Below are positions 4,533 to 40,950 of a stretch of 64,000 bases of DNA, one piece after another. The stretch comes from an uncultured Anaerolineae bacterium (GTDB taxonomy: Bacteria > Chloroflexota > Anaerolineae > Aggregatilineales > Ch27), in contig CAZGXI010000007.1 in the NCBI GenBank assembly GCA_964529715.1, positions 17,882 to 81,881 on the forward strand, written 5' to 3'. The position numbers were made by a program, and so were the translations under genes. Position 1 is the stretch's first letter; every line of letters begins with the position of its first letter. Under the pieces are notes generated by a model. The model was given only the letters and a program-made list of their open reading frames with translations. It was not told the DNA's origin and searched no databases.

Positions 4533-5729
4533 TTAGAATAACTGCATCGGCGGGCGCAGCACCGGCTCGACCAGTTGGAGTGGATTCGGCACAAAAACCA
4601 GCACGAAGATCGCCAGCGTCAGCACGGCCAACGCACGGCGGCGACCATCTAGCGGCGTGATCATATCCAGCGGCGTGGCGTAGACTCGCCCAAACAGCAG
4701 CAACAGAAACACCCACAACATCCAGGCTTCAGAAACAAACAATGCCAACGCCGCCATGATCAGGATCGCCGGGCCGTAAAGCTGGCGCGCCCGGTTGCCC
4801 AACAGCGTAAACAGGACGTGCCCGCCATCAAGCTGCCCAATCGGGATCAGGTTCAACCCGGTGACAAACAGGCCGGTCCAACCCGCCTGGGCCAACTGAT
4901 TTAAGAACACATCCACACGCCCATCAGGTAAAAAGCGCCCGTAAGTGACCACTTTGGCGAGCGCGTACAGGATCGAATTTCCTTCGAGGAGATAGGGTTC
5001 GCCCGTCGGCAAAGGACGCACTTCCGCCGTCGCCAGACCGATCAACAAGATGGGAATGGCGAACACCAGCCCGGCCAGCGGCCCCGCCGCGCCCACATCG
5101 AACAACGCCTTGCGGTTGCGCATCGGCGCGCGAAGCTGAATGAACGCGCCAAGCGTTCCAAAGAAGCCAAATGGCAGCGGGATAAAGTACGGCAAAGTTA
5201 CGGGCACACGATGATGGCGCGCAGCAAAATAATGCCCCAACTCATGCGCGCCTAGAATGAGGACAATACTCAGCGCGTAGGGCCAGCCGCGCCAGATTTC
5301 GGTTAACTGGCGATTCGGATCGGTCAGCAGGGCGTCGCCCAGAGCGATGCCTGCTCCCACATACAGCAGGCTGAGCACTGTCAGGATGAACAACACCAGA
5401 TTGGGCCACCAGGCGCGCGGCGGCGGGTTGATCCGACCGCTCATGATCTGGACCTGCTGCACATCTCCCTGCTCCCGGAAAGCCGCAGTGTAGTTCAGCG
5501 TAGCCAGACGTTCATCAAGCTGTGCATAAGCGTCCTCGGAATCTAGCAGCAGCCGACCCGTAAAAACCGCCGTTATACCGGGCAAGGGATGAAACTGCTC
5601 TGCCTCAATCAGAAAGACCTCGGCCACCGCCCGGCGCAGCGCATCAAACTGCCGCTCTTCAGCTGGTGGAGTGATCGTTTCCGGCAGAACGGGATTATCA
5701 TGATTGTAAGAGGCCATTTCGTCGAGCAT
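4533..5729 (-). CDS. Site-2 protease family (peptidase M50) membrane metalloprotease
   Basis: HELGHYFAARHH (HExxH) lies inside a TM segment. The protein is polytopic. A second motif region is GQLDGGHV. Confidence 0.85.
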   Translation of the reverse strand: MLDEMASYNHDNPVLPETITPPAEERQFDALRRAVAEVFLIEAEQFHPLPGITAVFTGRLLLDSEDAYAQLDERLATLNYTAAFREQGDVQQVQIMSGRINPPPRAWWPNLVLFILTVLSLLYVGAGIALGDALLTDPNRQLTEIWRGWPYALSIVLILGAHELGHYFAARHHRVPVTLPYFIPLPFGFFGTLGAFIQLRAPMRNRKALFDVGAAGPLAGLVFAIPILLIGLATAEVRPLPTGEPYLLEGNSILYALAKVVTYGRFLPDGRVDVFLNQLAQAGWTGLFVTGLNLIPIGQLDGGHVLFTLLGNRARQLYGPAILIMAALALFVSEAWMLWVFLLLLFGRVYATPLDMITPLDGRRRALAVLTLAIFVLVFVPNPLQLVEPVLRPPMQLF

Positions 5730-15692: not shown

Positions 15693-15789
15693 CATTCGTG
15701 CCTTTCCGGGCGTCTAACCCTCAGACGCACACAAAACGGCGACGACGGCTTGAAGCCGCCGCCACAAAATCCTTTGGAAAGGCACGCTC

Positions 15790-16218
15790 ATGCTGATCGA
15801 CGTTATCCGCGCGCACCCGGCGCCTGTGCTGCTGATCGTGTTTGCGGCAGCGTTCCTACTGCTGCACATCATCCTCTACATCCACCCCAGCCCCATCGAC
15901 TCCCCGGCGGCGCTCCAGGCCCGGCTGAACGGCGGGCGCCCTGTGCTGCTGGAAATCTATTCCAACCTTTGAACAATGTGCACCGTATCGAAGCCCATCG
16001 TGGATGGGCTGGAAACGGAACTGCAAGGTCGGGTCGAAGTGTTGCGGGTGGACCTGCTGGGCGAAGTCGGGCGCGATGCAGCCCGACAGTACGGTGTGCG
16101 GCTCGTGCCAACACTGCTGCTGTTCGACGGCGCAGGAAACGTGGTCGCGCGTCACGAGGGCATTCTATTGGACGCGGGGGCCATTCGCAGCGCGGCCCTG
16201 GCCCTGCTAGAACGCTAA
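15790..16218 (+). CDS. Membrane-anchored thioredoxin-fold protein, candidate selenoprotein (TGA 15970-15972 read as Sec, UxxC motif)
   Basis: ORFs 15790..15972 and 15976..16218 share one frame. The junction reads PVLLEIYSNL-TGA-TMC-TVSKPIVDGLE. Pro lies 5 residues after the second Cys and the cis-Pro motif RLVPTLLLF is present. The N-terminus is a TM helix. Confidence 0.65.
15983..16018 (+). promoter_or_regulatory. SECIS-like stem-loop downstream of the in-frame TGA
   Basis: Upper stem AGCCCATC (15992-15999) pairs with GATGGGCT (16003-16010), with loop GUG. Lower stem CCGT (15983-15986) pairs with ACGG (16015-16018) across an internal loop. The upper stem starts 19 nt after the TGA. Confidence 0.5.
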
Positions 16219-16224
16219 CGATCA

Positions 16225-16249
16225 GGGGCGCGCCATCATAGCGCGCCCC
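16225..16249. terminator. GC hairpin between convergent genes (possible bidirectional terminator, no U-tract)
   Basis: GGGGCGCGC-catcata-GCGCGCCCC. Confidence 0.4.
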
Positions 16250-16276: not shown

Positions 16277-19180
16277 TCACTGCTGCCGGGCGAAGTTCAC
16301 AAAGTCGTCCACTTGCGATGTGCGCACAGCGCGGTGGCACAGCGTCTGTCCGCCGCTCAACGGCACCTGCTGAAAACCGGGGCACGTCCCACTGACGATA
16401 GCGATTTCCACCTGGAGGCGCGTCAGCAGCGTCACAGCTTGCTGGTCACTGGGAGTGCACAGGCGGCTGACCGCGCCGATGGGCGCGCTGCGGTTGAAGG
16501 CGCCGATGATCTGGCCGGCATAGTCGCCGCTGGTGCACACGCCCGCTGCCCGGATGACCGTCCAGAGATCGGGGTTGCGGTCGGCCAGAGGCGGTGTGGG
16601 CACTGCCGCGACATTGCCCAGCGTCACCACGCAGTCGCCCAGGCTCAGCCAGCCGACCATGCCGTTTGAGAGTTCGACCAGCACCCACTCGCCATTGTCG
16701 TCGCGCTCGATCACATTCAGGTAGCCCGTCTCCGCCGAGAGCACCGTCATCACTTCGGCGTTGCGGGTGGGATTGCGGCGCAGATTGACATTGCAGATCA
16801 CATCTGCCAGCGGCGGGCCGCTGTAAGGCGCAGCCGTCGGCTGCACGGGCAGACCGAGCACATTGCCCTGAGTGACCAGGCATTCGCCGTAGGCCGTCCA
16901 GCCCTGCACGCCGTCTGCCCGCTCCACGAAGACCCAACTTGTGTTCTCGTCTCGCCCCAGGATGGACAAAACGCCATCCTCAGGCTGCAAAGTGGTGATC
17001 GCCGTGCTGTTCACGTTGGGCTGCTCGCGCAAGAACTGCGGACAGGCGACCATCGCTATCGGCGGACCGCCGTAGGTCGGCAAAAGCGGATACGGGATCA
17101 CGGGCGCTTCGTCCAGGTTGCCGCGCACCGTCACGCAGGCACCGCTCGCCGCCCAGCCGACTGTGCCGTTCTCAAGCGCAATCCGCATCCAGGCATTATC
17201 AGGAGTCCGCCCGGTGATGCTCAGCGTGCCTTCCAGTCCGGTGAGCACCCACACTTGCTGCGATTCCTCGCTGGGCAGAGCGCGCAAGAACTGGGTACAC
17301 GTCAGTGCGCCAATCGGCGGTCCGCTGTAGACTGGGAACGGCTGCTCGACGACTGGAGCATCGGTCAGGTTGCCGCGCACGCCAATACACGCCCCAGTTG
17401 CCGCCCAGCCCACCGTGCCATCGGACAGCATGATCTGCATCCAGTCCAGATCGGCGGTGCGCCCGATAATATAAAGAGTACCCTCAGAACCGTCGAGTAC
17501 CCGCACAGTTTGGGAGTCCTGGGCCGGGACAGTGCGGAGATACTGCGTGCAGGTCAGCACGCCAATCGGTGGACCATCATAGCCAGCCATCTCGATCACC
17601 GGGGCTGCCAGCACATCGCCGCTCACCCGTAGGCAGTTGCCGACGCCAACCCAGCCTTGCAGGCCATCGTAACGCAGGATGAGCAGCCACGAAGCATCCT
17701 CTGTCCGACCGACGACATTGTACGGTCCTGCGCCAGCCGGCATCACGTCCAGGATACGGCCTTCGGTGCTCGGATAGGCGCGCAGCCGCTGTGGACAGGC
17801 CAGTTCAACCACTGGCGGCCCGCTATAAGCAGCCGACGAGAAGATCGGCAGCCCCAGCACCTCCCCGACGACGTTCAGACAGTTCCCCCAGGCGGCCCAA
17901 CCCTGGTAGCCGTTGCCGTTCAGGTAGAGCCAGCTTGTGTCCGCGTTGCGCCACAGGATACTGTACGGCGCATCGCCGGGACGCATGGTCGCCACCGCCG
18001 TCGCTGCGGCATCCGGCTCGAAGCGCAGGTATTGGTTACAGGAAACGGTCGCATAAGGCTCGGCGATCCCGGCAGCCCCGACCGGTCCCGTTACCACCTG
18101 GGTTGCTCCAGTCACTTCCGGCAACAGGATAGGCGTCTCCAGAACGTTGCCGAGCACGTTCAGGCAATTTCCATTCGCCATCCAGCCTTCCAGACCACTA
18201 TCTGCGCGCACATACAGCCAGGTTGCCGGCTGGTTGCGCCCGACGATCTGCACCACGCCGCTGGTCGCATCCAGGATAGAAATGCGGCGTCCGTCGGCGC
18301 TGGGATAGGCCCGTAGATACTGGGAACAAACCACGTTAGCGACGGCAGGGCCGCTGTACGCTGGCTCAGAAACGACCGGAACAGCGTTCAAGTCGCCCAA
18401 CAGATTCACGCACTCCCCGCCGAAGGCCGTCCAACCGACCAGACCGCCGTCGCTGTTCGTCACCACGAACCAGCTATTGTCGGCGTTGCGCCCGGTGATG
18501 AGCCAGGGATCGTCAGCGGGCTGCATCACGGCGACACGCGCCGCCTGGGTGTTCGGCTGCGCACGCACGTACTGGGAACAAAGCACGTCCAGCGCGGGCG
18601 GGCCACTGTAAGGTTCGGTCGGTTGCACGATAGGCACGGCCAGGAAGTTGCCCGCCACCTGGATACATTCGGTGTAGGATGTCCAGCCGACCTGCCCGGT
18701 CAGAGTCGTGACCAGCATCCAGGTGTTGTCGGCGTTGCGTCCGCCGATGCTCAGGGGTGAATCCGCCGCGCTGAGGGTCGCCAGCACCAGGCCATCGGTC
18801 GAGGGATAGCGGCGCAAGTACTGCGGACAAACGACCGTCCCGACGGGCAGCCCTGGAGTCGCTACTTGGGTCGGGTTGATCGTCGGAACCGTGTTCAGGT
18901 CGCCGCTGACAGCCAGGCAATCTCCGTCGTACGCCCAGCCTTGGAAATTCGGATCGATCTGCAACAACAGCCAGCCCGCATTCTGCCCAACGACGGCAAA
19001 CACGTCTCCTGGGTTCATCAGGCCGACGTGCGGCGCATCTTCAGAAGGCAGCGAGCGGAGATATTGGCTACAGACCACCGTCACCGCAGCGCCGCCTTGT
19101 TGCGCGCGCGCTGGGCCACCGGATAACACCAGCGCGCTCGCCAGGAGCGCCCATAACAGCCAGCGAATCGGTTTGCTCAT
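16277..19180 (-). CDS. Large secreted protein with ten tandem SH3b-like Cys-pair repeats and a Cys-rich C-terminal domain
   Basis: Start at ATG 19180 (MSKPIRWLLWALLASALVLSGGPARAQ signal peptide) with AAGGAGAAAGAGG directly upstream. There are ten repeats of about 83 aa with the pattern V.C.QYLR..P......V......G.......GR......W........G..GW......C..V.G.....P. Confidence 0.85.
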   Translation of the reverse strand: MSKPIRWLLWALLASALVLSGGPARAQQGGAAVTVVCSQYLRSLPSEDAPHVGLMNPGDVFAVVGQNAGWLLLQIDPNFQGWAYDGDCLAVSGDLNTVPTINPTQVATPGLPVGTVVCPQYLRRYPSTDGLVLATLSAADSPLSIGGRNADNTWMLVTTLTGQVGWTSYTECIQVAGNFLAVPIVQPTEPYSGPPALDVLCSQYVRAQPNTQAARVAVMQPADDPWLITGRNADNSWFVVTNSDGGLVGWTAFGGECVNLLGDLNAVPVVSEPAYSGPAVANVVCSQYLRAYPSADGRRISILDATSGVVQIVGRNQPATWLYVRADSGLEGWMANGNCLNVLGNVLETPILLPEVTGATQVVTGPVGAAGIAEPYATVSCNQYLRFEPDAAATAVATMRPGDAPYSILWRNADTSWLYLNGNGYQGWAAWGNCLNVVGEVLGLPIFSSAAYSGPPVVELACPQRLRAYPSTEGRILDVMPAGAGPYNVVGRTEDASWLLILRYDGLQGWVGVGNCLRVSGDVLAAPVIEMAGYDGPPIGVLTCTQYLRTVPAQDSQTVRVLDGSEGTLYIIGRTADLDWMQIMLSDGTVGWAATGACIGVRGNLTDAPVVEQPFPVYSGPPIGALTCTQFLRALPSEESQQVWVLTGLEGTLSITGRTPDNAWMRIALENGTVGWAASGACVTVRGNLDEAPVIPYPLLPTYGGPPIAMVACPQFLREQPNVNSTAITTLQPEDGVLSILGRDENTSWVFVERADGVQGWTAYGECLVTQGNVLGLPVQPTAAPYSGPPLADVICNVNLRRNPTRNAEVMTVLSAETGYLNVIERDDNGEWVLVELSNGMVGWLSLGDCVVTLGNVAAVPTPPLADRNPDLWTVIRAAGVCTSGDYAGQIIGAFNRSAPIGAVSRLCTPSDQQAVTLLTRLQVEIAIVSGTCPGFQQVPLSGGQTLCHRAVRTSQVDDFVNFARQQ
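16570..19085 (-). repeat. Diverged tandem coding repeat array (10 units of about 250 nt) inside the SH3b-like protein gene
   Basis: Periodicity is seen at protein level (CSQYLR/CPQYLR/CTQYLR ... GW ... C ... G(D/N)(L/V) ... P). Array boundaries are approximate. Confidence 0.7.
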
Positions 19181-19248
19181 CGCCTCTTTCTCCTTCATTC
19201 CATGCGCTCCATCCTATGCGGACCGGGCGAATGACGCAAGTCGGCAGG

Positions 19249-22025
<2,777 letters not shown>

Positions 22026-22135
22026 GAAAGCCTGCTTTCCCTTAGCCGCGCTACACTCCACAGTGTAAACCGAAAGTTGGACTAAAATCAAGTTAGAATC
22101 ACGAATCAAGGCTAAGGAACACAGCCGGACGCGCT

Positions 22136-39960: not shown

Positions 39961-40950
39961 TCAGGCCATTTGATCGACCACCGCGCGGATGGCGCGAATA
40001 TTCGACAGCGGCGTCGTGGTCATGATGACGCAGCCCGTAGAGAGAATAAAACGGCGACCACCGGTCTGCTCGATGGCATTGCGCGCCTGCTCGCGGACCT
40101 CGGCGGGGGTGCCATTGTGCACCGGGTTCCAGCGCGCCAGTCCCCCACACACCGCGCCGGGAAATTTCGTTTTGCCCAGCGCCAGGTCAGGGTCAGTCTC
40201 ACGATCATGCCAGTTAAGCGCCTGTACGGGGTAATCGGCTACCAGGTCGAACATCGGCGACTCGCCATGCAGATGCACCATGTTCAGCCACCATCGGCTG
40301 CTCAACGCCTCCAGAATACGCAGGTCATAGGGTCGTCCAAAGGCCCGGTACTCATCCTCGCTAAGCAGGTCATAACTGGCGTGCTGGATGGCGTAAAAGA
40401 TGCCGTCGATGCCGGTACGCTGTAGTTCTTCGAGGAAGCGGAGCGTGCTTTCCGTGATGGTATTCAGGCCCGTATGGAGGCGCTCCGGCGCGGTGCGGAG
40501 GTGATTGATCAGGCGCGCGCCGCCGGCGATATTTTTGGCCTGAGCCAGCGGACTGAAGATCGTTTGCAGGACGGGGGTTCCGCCCTGCAAGCCTTCGACG
40601 ATCAGCCGCACACACTCCAACTGCCGACCCAATGCACCACGCGCCGGTTCCAGCACGCGCAGGCGCGTCCAGTCTAGCGATCGTTCGACGGCGCGGCGGG
40701 TATACTCGCGGGTGCCCTCCAGCGACCCGACCCACTGATCCTGCACCCCATAGTCACTGATACAAAAGCTGCTGGCCGGGGTGATCTTGACGAAATCGAA
40801 GTCATAGCGGCGTTGAAACTCCAGGGTCGATTCGGCCAGGTCCGCCGGGCGCTGGTCATCGCCGGGCCAGTGCCGCCACAGGGCCACCGGCACACGATCA
40901 ACAGCTTCGCCGGCAATCGCCCGTTCCAGGCGCTCTCGTTTGGATGTCAT
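39961..40950 (-). CDS. Uroporphyrinogen decarboxylase (URO-D) family protein, MtaA/CmuA-like
   Basis: 329 aa. N-terminal ...GEAVDRVPVALWRHWPGDD. Length and pattern match the URO-D-like TIM barrel family. Specific substrate unknown. Confidence 0.75.
   Translation of the reverse strand: MTSKRERLERAIAGEAVDRVPVALWRHWPGDDQRPADLAESTLEFQRRYDFDFVKITPASSFCISDYGVQDQWVGSLEGTREYTRRAVERSLDWTRLRVLEPARGALGRQLECVRLIVEGLQGGTPVLQTIFSPLAQAKNIAGGARLINHLRTAPERLHTGLNTITESTLRFLEELQRTGIDGIFYAIQHASYDLLSEDEYRAFGRPYDLRILEALSSRWWLNMVHLHGESPMFDLVADYPVQALNWHDRETDPDLALGKTKFPGAVCGGLARWNPVHNGTPAEVREQARNAIEQTGGRRFILSTGCVIMTTTPLSNIRAIRAVVDQMA

Follow-up and report, generated by a model that had tools for sequence, protein, structure and literature searches.

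In this study, we report that positions 15790-16218 of a 64-kb stretch of DNA from an uncultured Anaerolineae bacterium (contig CAZGXI010000007.1; the whole stretch is referred to below as the window, and all coordinates given without a locus name are window positions) very probably form one selenocysteine (Sec)-decoding gene. The gene would encode a membrane-anchored thioredoxin of about 142 residues, with an in-frame UGA read as Sec and a bacterial selenocysteine insertion sequence (SECIS) hairpin just downstream of it, and we put the probability of this reading at roughly 0.86. The frame is single, the product has a thioredoxin fold, relatives carry either TGA or a Cys codon in the same column, and the hairpin is conserved and covaries among them. 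An earlier note on the window, made from its letters alone, had proposed that this apparently split gene is one selenoprotein with the TGA at the first position of a UxxC motif; the proposal is supported by the span of the Pfam match, by the Sec/Cys column and by the covariation of the hairpin.

Reading frame, thioredoxin domain and membrane anchor

Two open reading frames (ORFs) on the forward strand, 15790..15972 (60 aa) and 15976..16218 (80 aa), share one frame and are separated only by TGA (15970-15972) and one Thr codon, just as the earlier note had described them. The read-through junction is ...GRPVLLEIYSNL-[TGA]-T-M-C-TVSKPIVDGL.... The features of the gene, all on the + strand, are as follows.

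15776..15782, possible ribosome-binding site GGAAAGG, 7 nt upstream of ATG 15790, judged from the sequence
15790..16218, predicted selenoprotein coding sequence, 142 codons including the Sec-UGA, stop TAA at 16216-16218, frame otherwise unbroken
15826..15882, predicted N-terminal transmembrane anchor, residues 13-31, VLLIVFAAAFLLLHIILYI, mean Kyte-Doolittle value 2.93 over 19 residues
15925..16155, thioredoxin-fold domain, residues 46-122, spanning the UGA (Pfam match, PDB alignment and model of a Cys homolog)
15970..15972, in-frame UGA, predicted Sec, residue 61, attacking residue of UxxC (codon-column comparison: 123 TGA, 33 TGC/TGT, no TAA/TAG)
15979..15981, TGC, second (resolving) Cys of UxxC, residue 64, invariant in both family alignments
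15992..16010, candidate bacterial SECIS hairpin within the coding sequence, stem 15992-15999 / 16003-16010, apical loop GUG 16000-16002 (fold and covariation)
16108..16110, CCA, conserved cis-Pro, P107 in VPTLLLFDG, invariant in both family alignments and aligned with IPTLLLF of solved thioredoxins

The read-through product, scored with Cys substituted for the TGA, matches Pfam PF00085 (Thioredoxin) with 36.1 bits against a cut-off of 23.5, and the match runs through residues 46-122 across the TGA. The downstream ORF alone reaches 21.1 bits, which is under the threshold, and on its own it would be without beta-1 and the nucleophile. When the protein was compared with all PDB sequences using phmmer, thioredoxins were the top matches (best E = 6e-11); the TGA column faces the leading Cys of their WCGPC, and the cis-Pro loop 'IRSIPTLLLFKN' is matched by 'VRLVPTLLLFDG'. 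According to the alignment to solved thioredoxins, helix 1 begins with the redox motif, which follows beta-1, and the cis-Pro loop comes before beta-3. P69, the Pro five residues past the second Cys, and P107 of the cis-Pro motif VPT, to which the earlier note had drawn attention, are both invariant in the family and match the positions of PDB thioredoxins.

The structure modelled was that of a Cys homolog (P0007, AlphaFold) and not that of the read-through protein. The model (predicted local distance difference test score, pLDDT, 90.9) shows two N-terminal helices followed by a beta-alpha-beta-alpha-beta-beta-alpha fold, in which the CxxC motif (residues 85-88) lies at the start of helix 86-101, after strand 76-81. 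Its nearest solved folds in a Foldseek search were classical thioredoxins (Trx1, Trx m), with target-normalised TM-scores of about 0.75-0.80.

A hydrophobic segment similar to the anchor occurs throughout the family, with a median Kyte-Doolittle value of 2.13. Among 120 relatives, the 15 residues before the anchor hold a mean of 2.2 Lys/Arg against 0.9 in the 15 residues after it; the N-flank exceeds the C-flank in 78 and falls below it in 19, and the C-flank appears acidic in the aligned family members inspected. Under the positive-inside rule, this surplus of Lys/Arg before the anchor suggests an N-in/C-out topology, with the redox domain at the outer face of the cytoplasmic membrane. That the upstream ORF supplies a transmembrane anchor and beta-1 while the downstream ORF lacks the nucleophile, as had been proposed, is borne out by hydrophobicity and by the Pfam span.

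The codon at the TGA position in relatives

When the read-through sequence was used as a protein query, three close homologs were returned, all of them fragments of 78-80 residues, together with two full-length CxxC proteins of 160 residues. Each of the three fragments is preceded in frame by an ORF of about 60-65 codons on its own contig, with the junctions YSNL*TMC, YSNL*TQC and YSNT*MSC. The expectation that gene callers would yield fragments was therefore correct for the three close relatives checked, in which the deposited calls are split in the same way. Full-length read-through orthologs were found at L001, L002, L003 and L080, and relatives at 92% and 74% identity retain the same intact arrangement.

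A total of 160 sequences was then compared by aligning the window query to the in-frame translation of each locus. The set consisted of the window, three loci reached via the split ORF, and 156 loci fetched by scanning species-representative genomes and metagenome contigs with the conserved peptides that flank the TGA. Identity in the genome scan did not exceed 54-57% for any contig. The codon in the TGA column was TGA in 123 sequences and TGC or TGT in 33, was never TAA or TAG, and could not be aligned in the remaining four; the second Cys codon was TGC or TGT in 156 of 156 aligned sequences. The sample is skewed to the window's own clade, and the ratio of 123:33 is uninformative on the overall frequency of Sec and Cys. 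Homologs thus do place Cys at this column, as the earlier note had asked of them, both in these 33 loci and in the CxxC of 114 of the 125 database proteins described below.

The 123 TGA sequences comprise 40 loci from 39 GTDB species-representative metagenome-assembled genomes (MAGs), 79 metagenome contigs, the three split-ORF loci and the window. The MAGs are labelled mostly as Anaerolineae, Ardenticatenia, Thermoflexia and Dehalococcoidia, with others labelled Chloroflexia or Chloroflexota and one Roseobacter. The last of these (L042, JAYTNY010000656.1, from a MAG labelled Roseobacter sp.) is the sole TGA genome match outside Chloroflexota and is probably a mis-binned contig. Coding conservation extends to both sides of the TGA, with the flanking motif PV[LIV][LV]EF[YF]SN[TLY]-U-x-x-C-L-x-A-K-P-[IV]-V-D-[GR]-L, and the portion after U measures 71-85 residues (median 79) in 120 complete genes. 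The base immediately 3' of the Sec-UGA in the 123 loci is A in 86, G in 25, C in 12 and U in none.

The hairpin downstream of the UGA

The hairpin consists of the arms AGCCCATC (15992-15999) and GATGGGCT (16003-16010; as RNA, GAUGGGCU) around the loop GTG (16000-16002), and it overlaps the codons for K-P-I-V-D-G-L. The stem begins 19 nt, and the loop 27 nt, past the UGA; the perfect 8-bp stem, the GUG loop and the 19-nt distance of the earlier note were all confirmed. A 76-nt stretch around the hairpin folds at -27.9 kcal/mol (z = -3.25), none of 200 shuffled sequences being as stable, and the isolated 19-nt hairpin has a folding energy of -11.8 kcal/mol.

The consensus model for bacterial SECIS elements (bSECIS; bSECISearch) is summarised in a 2026 review (PMC13188914). 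It calls for an apical loop of 3-9 nt, an upper stem of 4-16 bp, a UGA-to-loop distance of 16-37 nt and a minimum free energy (MFE) of -7.5 kcal/mol or lower, with a G required in the first two loop positions, usually as G[G/U] (PMC13188914). The window's hairpin, with a loop of 3 nt (GUG, a G followed by U), a stem of 8 bp, a distance of 27 nt and -11.8 kcal/mol, lies within the model on every count, and the general bacterial layout that the earlier note had invoked fits the published one (PMC13188914). Among distinct hairpins of the family, 109 of 116 have an MFE of -7.5 kcal/mol or lower.

Covariation was assessed on an ungapped alignment of 118 distinct sequences with the hairpin in register. 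Of the cells for the eight stem pairs, 95.3% are paired; sliding the 3' arm by one to three columns lowers this share to 23-45%. Changes on both sides of the stem occur in four pairs, two of which carry 47-49 double changes and no broken cell. These two are pair 36-46 (CG 67, UA 45, UG 4, GC 2; broken in 0 of 118) and pair 37-45 (GC 64, AU 49, GU 5; broken in 0 of 118). The former joins the synonymous third base of the Pro codon CCN to the first base of the Gly/Arg codon, and the latter joins the synonymous third base of the Asp codon GAY to the first base of the Ile/Val codon. Since the two pairs occur in all combinations, they do not represent one inherited haplotype. The covariation score was 0.312, compared with 0.168 in shuffled alignments (0 of 500 as high) and at most 0.118 in slid ones, and RNAalifold independently recovered a 5-bp core. 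Compensatory change among relatives, which had been named as a check on the hairpin, was thus observed in register.

The earlier note had also extended the stem by CCGT/ACGG across an internal loop. This extension forms in the window's MFE structure, but of 120 distinct relatives only 32-51% form each of three of its four base pairs, and the lower stem was rejected as a conserved feature.

Constraint of the hairpin on the protein

Because the Gly/Arg codon that follows Asp pairs base for base with the Pro codon, it must be NGG. This is what was found in 114 of 116 Sec forms (GGG 69, AGG 43, CGG 2), in which the matching Pro codon is CCC, CCU or CCG. These codons are not the ones that the genome favours: in the window's long genes, GGG accounts for 23% of Gly codons, AGG for 3% of Arg codons and CCU for 11.5% of Pro codons. 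At this residue, 47 of 114 Cys-form proteins have Gly or Arg (Fisher p = 3e-24), and the other 67 have Glu, Ala, Asp, Asn, Gln, Ser, Lys or Thr there, which breaks the core of the stem. To judge from these codons, Sec forms cannot do without the hairpin, whereas Cys forms can. The family thereby offers a worked example of a coding-region SECIS that restricts a protein to Gly/Arg with rare AGG and CCU codons, and the Cys sister clade shows the RNA constraint relaxing.

The Cys sister group

A profile built from 25 diverse read-through sequences retrieved 679 database proteins at E <= 1e-5, and a motif scan covered 125 database proteins. The motif reads QSP[YF]CxxC in 114 of the 125, mostly proteins of about 160 aa, and the Cys forms bear source names such as 'thioredoxin family protein [Chloroflexota/Anaerolineae]'. 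The QSPY/F context is also present in some Sec forms (L029, L034-L037, L040, L045 and L046), by which Sec and Cys forms are seen to be interleaved. Such interleaving is usual in selenoprotein families.

The Cys thioredoxins of about 160 aa (P0004, P0007, P0081) are 37-44% identical to the window protein over the thioredoxin domain, and they share with it the KP[IV]VD and PT[FL] motifs, membrane anchoring and the phylum. They differ in having Cys in place of Sec, two predicted N-terminal helices rather than one, a relaxed RNA constraint downstream of the active site, and other, more conserved neighbours (an EF-G-like GTPase, an S-adenosylmethionine (SAM) methyltransferase and a Metalloenzyme-superfamily protein). 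Six genes of this group (L162-L167; gene at 5001-5486, or at 478-960 in L167) were picked for encoding KP[IV]VD[GR]L. The EF-G-like GTPase lies divergently upstream in four of the six; the methyltransferase (weak TPMT/TehB matches) follows immediately downstream in all six, often overlapping the stop; and the Metalloenzyme-superfamily (PF01676) gene comes next in three. About 2 kb from the Cys-form gene of L162, at L162:7533-8916 on the minus strand, a reverse transcriptase gene (RVT_1) adjoins a bAvd/23S_rRNA_IVP gene. The pairing of a reverse transcriptase with bAvd is typical of a diversity-generating retroelement.

Selenocysteine machinery and the genetic code

The window has a G+C content of 61.6%, and its 30 largest ORFs are of a housekeeping nature (Ffh, TopA, DprA, SucCD, ComEC, aminopeptidases, a DNA methylase and a T2SSE ATPase); no sel-related Pfam domain was found in them. 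The 64 kb contain no tRNA genes, and tblastn of Escherichia coli SelA, SelB and SelD (NC_000913) against the window gave no match. TGA is the commonest ordinary stop in the window, ending 23 of 53 coding-like ORFs, which indicates that the code has not been reassigned. A scan for other in-frame TGA codons with coding-like sequence on both sides yielded no second selenoprotein candidate in the window; those at 1501 and 35924 were rejected as antisense artefacts, and those at 39963 and 58959 as ordinary neighbouring genes in the same frame.

Across all loci, aragorn detected 22 tRNAs, none of them tRNA-Sec. One locus with a Sec form carries, about 3 kb from that gene, the C-terminal ~100 residues of SelD (selenophosphate synthetase; L140:6304-6609, minus strand), cut by the end of the locus. 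This fragment matches SelD models only (E = 3.5e-13) and contains the motif DAQTSGGLL. Chloroflexi/Chloroflexota are documented users of Sec (PMC1794560; PMC13326102), with two Dehalococcoidia listed as having 46 and 49 selenoproteins. The SelD fragment near a Sec form and the use of Sec in the phylum were both counted in favour of a selenoprotein. Two other apparent matches to the machinery were rejected: a selA match at L022:5241-5429 (tblastn, E = 0.019) is an antisense ORF that overlaps the thioredoxin gene itself, and selB matches in L031 and L047 are limited to the N-terminal GTPase region, at ~26% identity, an EF-G-like gene being a common neighbour of the family.

Proposed mechanism

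On the evidence of sequence, the UGA at 15970-15972 would not be read as a stop during translation, and the active site would be U61-T-M-C64. The hairpin at 15992-16010, acting as a bacterial SECIS, would recruit SelB with Sec-tRNA(Sec) to the ribosome, and Sec would be inserted. The selenolate of Sec61 would then be the attacking nucleophile on substrate disulfides, and Cys64 would resolve the selenylsulfide in a thiol:disulfide exchange cycle. The dependence on SelB and tRNA-Sec, the incorporation of selenium, the topology and the nature of the substrates are all predictions of this scheme, by which the protein would function as a membrane-tethered, single-pass thiol:disulfide oxidoreductase.

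Evidence against a selenoprotein and alternative explanations

Several observations weigh against a Sec-decoding gene. The 3-nt loop of the window's hairpin is the minimum size that the bSECIS model allows, neither its lower stem nor its internal loop is conserved in the family, and Rfam (release 15) at gathering thresholds gave no match in the window; a permissive Rfam scan of 15900-16100 gave only two chance-level matches to unrelated families. The hairpin lies over the codons of a conserved peptide, KP[IV]VD, and it is not exclusive to Sec forms: of the six Cys-form genes picked for KP[IV]VD[GR]L, four retain a hairpin of 6-8 bp with energies between -5.9 and -9.2 kcal/mol, in three of these at or below the -7.5 kcal/mol of the model. 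The retained hairpins include matched CCG/CGG and CCU/AGG codon pairs, and in the other two genes the hairpin is disrupted. Where the peptide has diverged (RPQVDS, RPTVDE, RPTVDA), the three Cys-form genes examined form no hairpin (0 to -2.9 kcal/mol). Finally, selA, selB, selD and tRNA-Sec were not found within the 64-kb window, which is far too small for inference about the whole genome.

The hairpins of Cys forms could be left over from the use of Sec, could be a pre-adaptation or could point to a second role. SECIS-like structures in near Cys relatives of [NiFeSe] hydrogenases have been read as a remnant of Sec use or as a pre-adaptation (PMC13582414). Four of six Cys genes with SECIS-like hairpins, together with the Gly/Arg-only residue of the Sec clade, led us to entertain a broader view, unlikely as it is, in which the hairpin predates the use of Sec or does more than recruit SelB, and an exported selenothioredoxin with its selenolate at the outer face is widespread in Chloroflexota. 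If this were true, a pre-existing coding structure, such as a pause coupled to insertion of the anchor, would have been co-opted as a SECIS, easing repeated switches from Cys to Sec.

Recoding of the UGA to a residue other than Sec is quite improbable. A tRNA(ReC)-like tRNA might insert Cys with the help of SelB and the SECIS, or the hairpin might stimulate near-cognate read-through (Trp, Cys or Arg). tRNA(ReC)-like tRNAs do recode UGA given a SECIS, including in MAG surveys (PMC13582414), and computation shows that recoding takes place at the Cys column rather than the chemical identity of the residue. However, a UGA kept together with the costly NGG constraint across 39 species-level genomes is hard to explain if the residue is Cys, since the sister clade manages with TGC/TGT, and UxxC thioredoxins with Sec as the attacking residue are already known (PMC13188914).

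The gene could be a decaying pseudogene in this organism, a member of a family that is selenoprotein-coding elsewhere but whose Sec machinery has been lost here. Loss of selenoproteins is frequent in bacteria (PMC1794560), and the failure to find the machinery within the window would agree with it, although sel genes would not be expected in as little as 64 kb of a genome. In the gene itself, the frame, the second Cys, the cis-Pro and the perfect 8-bp SECIS are all intact, as they are in the relatives at 92% and 74% identity, and we regard this explanation as very improbable.

A third explanation takes the two ORFs as two true genes, a 60-residue membrane peptide ending at the UGA and an 80-residue truncated thioredoxin-like protein re-initiated at ATG 15976 by translational coupling. 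The ATG does stand one codon past the TGA in the window, and the deposited gene calls of the three close relatives checked look like two genes. Yet among 120 distinct relatives, an ATG follows the UGA within two codons in only 10, and 68 have no in-frame ATG within 30 codons of it; the stop is always TGA and never TAA or TAG, with a Cys codon in its place in homologs; and the downstream piece would lack beta-1 and the nucleophile, the upstream piece being conserved as the N-terminal part of one domain. Separate genes in relatives, which the earlier note had named as a ground for refutation, were thus not what the comparison revealed (TGA in 123 of 160, TAA/TAG in none, the ATG of the downstream ORF kept in 10 of 120), and this arrangement is highly improbable.

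That the hairpin is no SECIS and is kept for the peptide KPIVDGL or another RNA role (translational pausing in membrane insertion), its position being a coincidence, is barely credible: Cys-form genes with the same peptide often retain the hairpin and the loop GUN is an invariant Val codon, but a peptide can explain neither the covariation at synonymous sites, with no broken pairs in 118 sequences, nor the rare AGG/CCU codons, and the constraint is relaxed in Cys forms, 67 of 114 having a stem-breaking residue other than Gly/Arg and those with a diverged peptide forming no hairpin.

Relation to known selenoproteins and thioredoxins

The kind of gene proposed here, a UxxC Sec-thioredoxin, is already known; the new part would be the membrane-anchored Chloroflexota clade. 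'Thioredoxin (Trx), PF00085, UxxC' is listed among experimentally characterised prokaryotic selenoproteins, an example being Treponema denticola Trx, and several other UxxC families of the thioredoxin fold are listed as predicted (PMC13188914; PMC9312934). The window protein belongs to the same domain family as this Sec-thioredoxin, with the predicted Sec likewise first in UxxC, and both genes have a coding-region SECIS, a candidate one in the window, just downstream of the UGA. The window protein differs from it in its N-terminal membrane anchor, in the sequence SN[TL]-U-x-x-C with a variable xx, and in the lack of a WCGPC context; it belongs to a clade of its own, essentially confined to Chloroflexota. 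Canonical TrxA is soluble and has WCGPC, whereas the window protein has a transmembrane segment and SNL-U-TM-C, and its scores on the TrxA equivalogs fall short of their cut-offs (TIGR01068, 42.8 against 96.8; NF006898, 37.7 against 138).

Selenoprotein families described as 'thiol:disulfide interchange protein' (PF13098, UxxC) and 'UGC-containing TlpA family' are also known (PMC13188914). Proteins of the TlpA/ResA/DsbE-CcmG type resemble the window protein in having an N-terminal anchor, a thioredoxin-fold domain that is probably outside the membrane and a redox motif at the start of helix 1. The scores of the window protein on the corresponding models are, however, low (DsbE TIGR00385, 14.6 against 123; ResA NF002854, 14.8 against 170), and it lacks the extra insertions of TlpA/ResA. 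The family is nearest to classical thioredoxin and not to the TlpA/ResA/Redoxin branch, its best PDB sequence and Foldseek matches all being Trx1 or Trx-m.

A UxxC Sec-thioredoxin would not surprise a specialist, and the current understanding of Sec decoding is unchanged. No U was present in any of the 125 database proteins retrieved, and NCBIfam (release 20.0) gave no match to a dedicated model for this thioredoxin. Given these two results and the split gene calls, Chloroflexota selenoproteins may be under-counted in protein catalogues. The findings further suggest a selenolate-based thiol:disulfide oxidoreductase at the membrane, probably on its outside, in a phylum documented for its use of Sec.

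Gene neighbourhood and flanking sequences

The gene is flanked in the window by an amidohydrolase gene and by a convergent gene for an SH3-repeat protein. A search for contigs that encode this amidohydrolase returned no record. Among the 123 Sec loci, a canonical WCGPC thioredoxin lies directly upstream in 38, on the same strand and ~200-675 nt before the UGA; this is a canonical soluble thioredoxin, as in L117 (PF00085, 111.5 bits). Other recurrent neighbours are a SAM methyltransferase (21 of 123), a Metalloenzyme-superfamily protein (13), a MerR regulator (13) and a CsoR-like repressor (12). Genes for TrxA, the methyltransferase, the Metalloenzyme-superfamily protein, MerR and the CsoR-like repressor are none of them adjacent to the window's gene. 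A conserved operon partner that would explain the function was rejected, since each recurrent neighbour is found in only 12-38 of 123 loci and none stands beside the window's gene.

A G+C-rich hairpin of 12 bp (15739-15765) lies between the amidohydrolase gene and the start of the selenoprotein gene, and it is terminator-like on the minus strand only, where a T-run follows the stem. Directly past the stop of the selenoprotein gene, between the two convergent genes, is a 9-bp hairpin, GGGGCGCGC...GCGCGCCCC (16225-16249), which was read from the sequence; it has no T-run and hence was not reported by the terminator scan. The convergent gene (16277-19198, minus strand) encodes a 973-residue protein with an N-terminal signal-like segment and many tandem bacterial SH3 repeats (PF08239, 168.9 bits), each with a C-x-QYLR-like motif. 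Beyond it, at 19249-22109 on the minus strand, an N6/N4 DNA methylase gene with a RAMA domain (19249-20523) shares 4 nt with the start of a gene for a T2SSE-family secretion ATPase (20520-22109).

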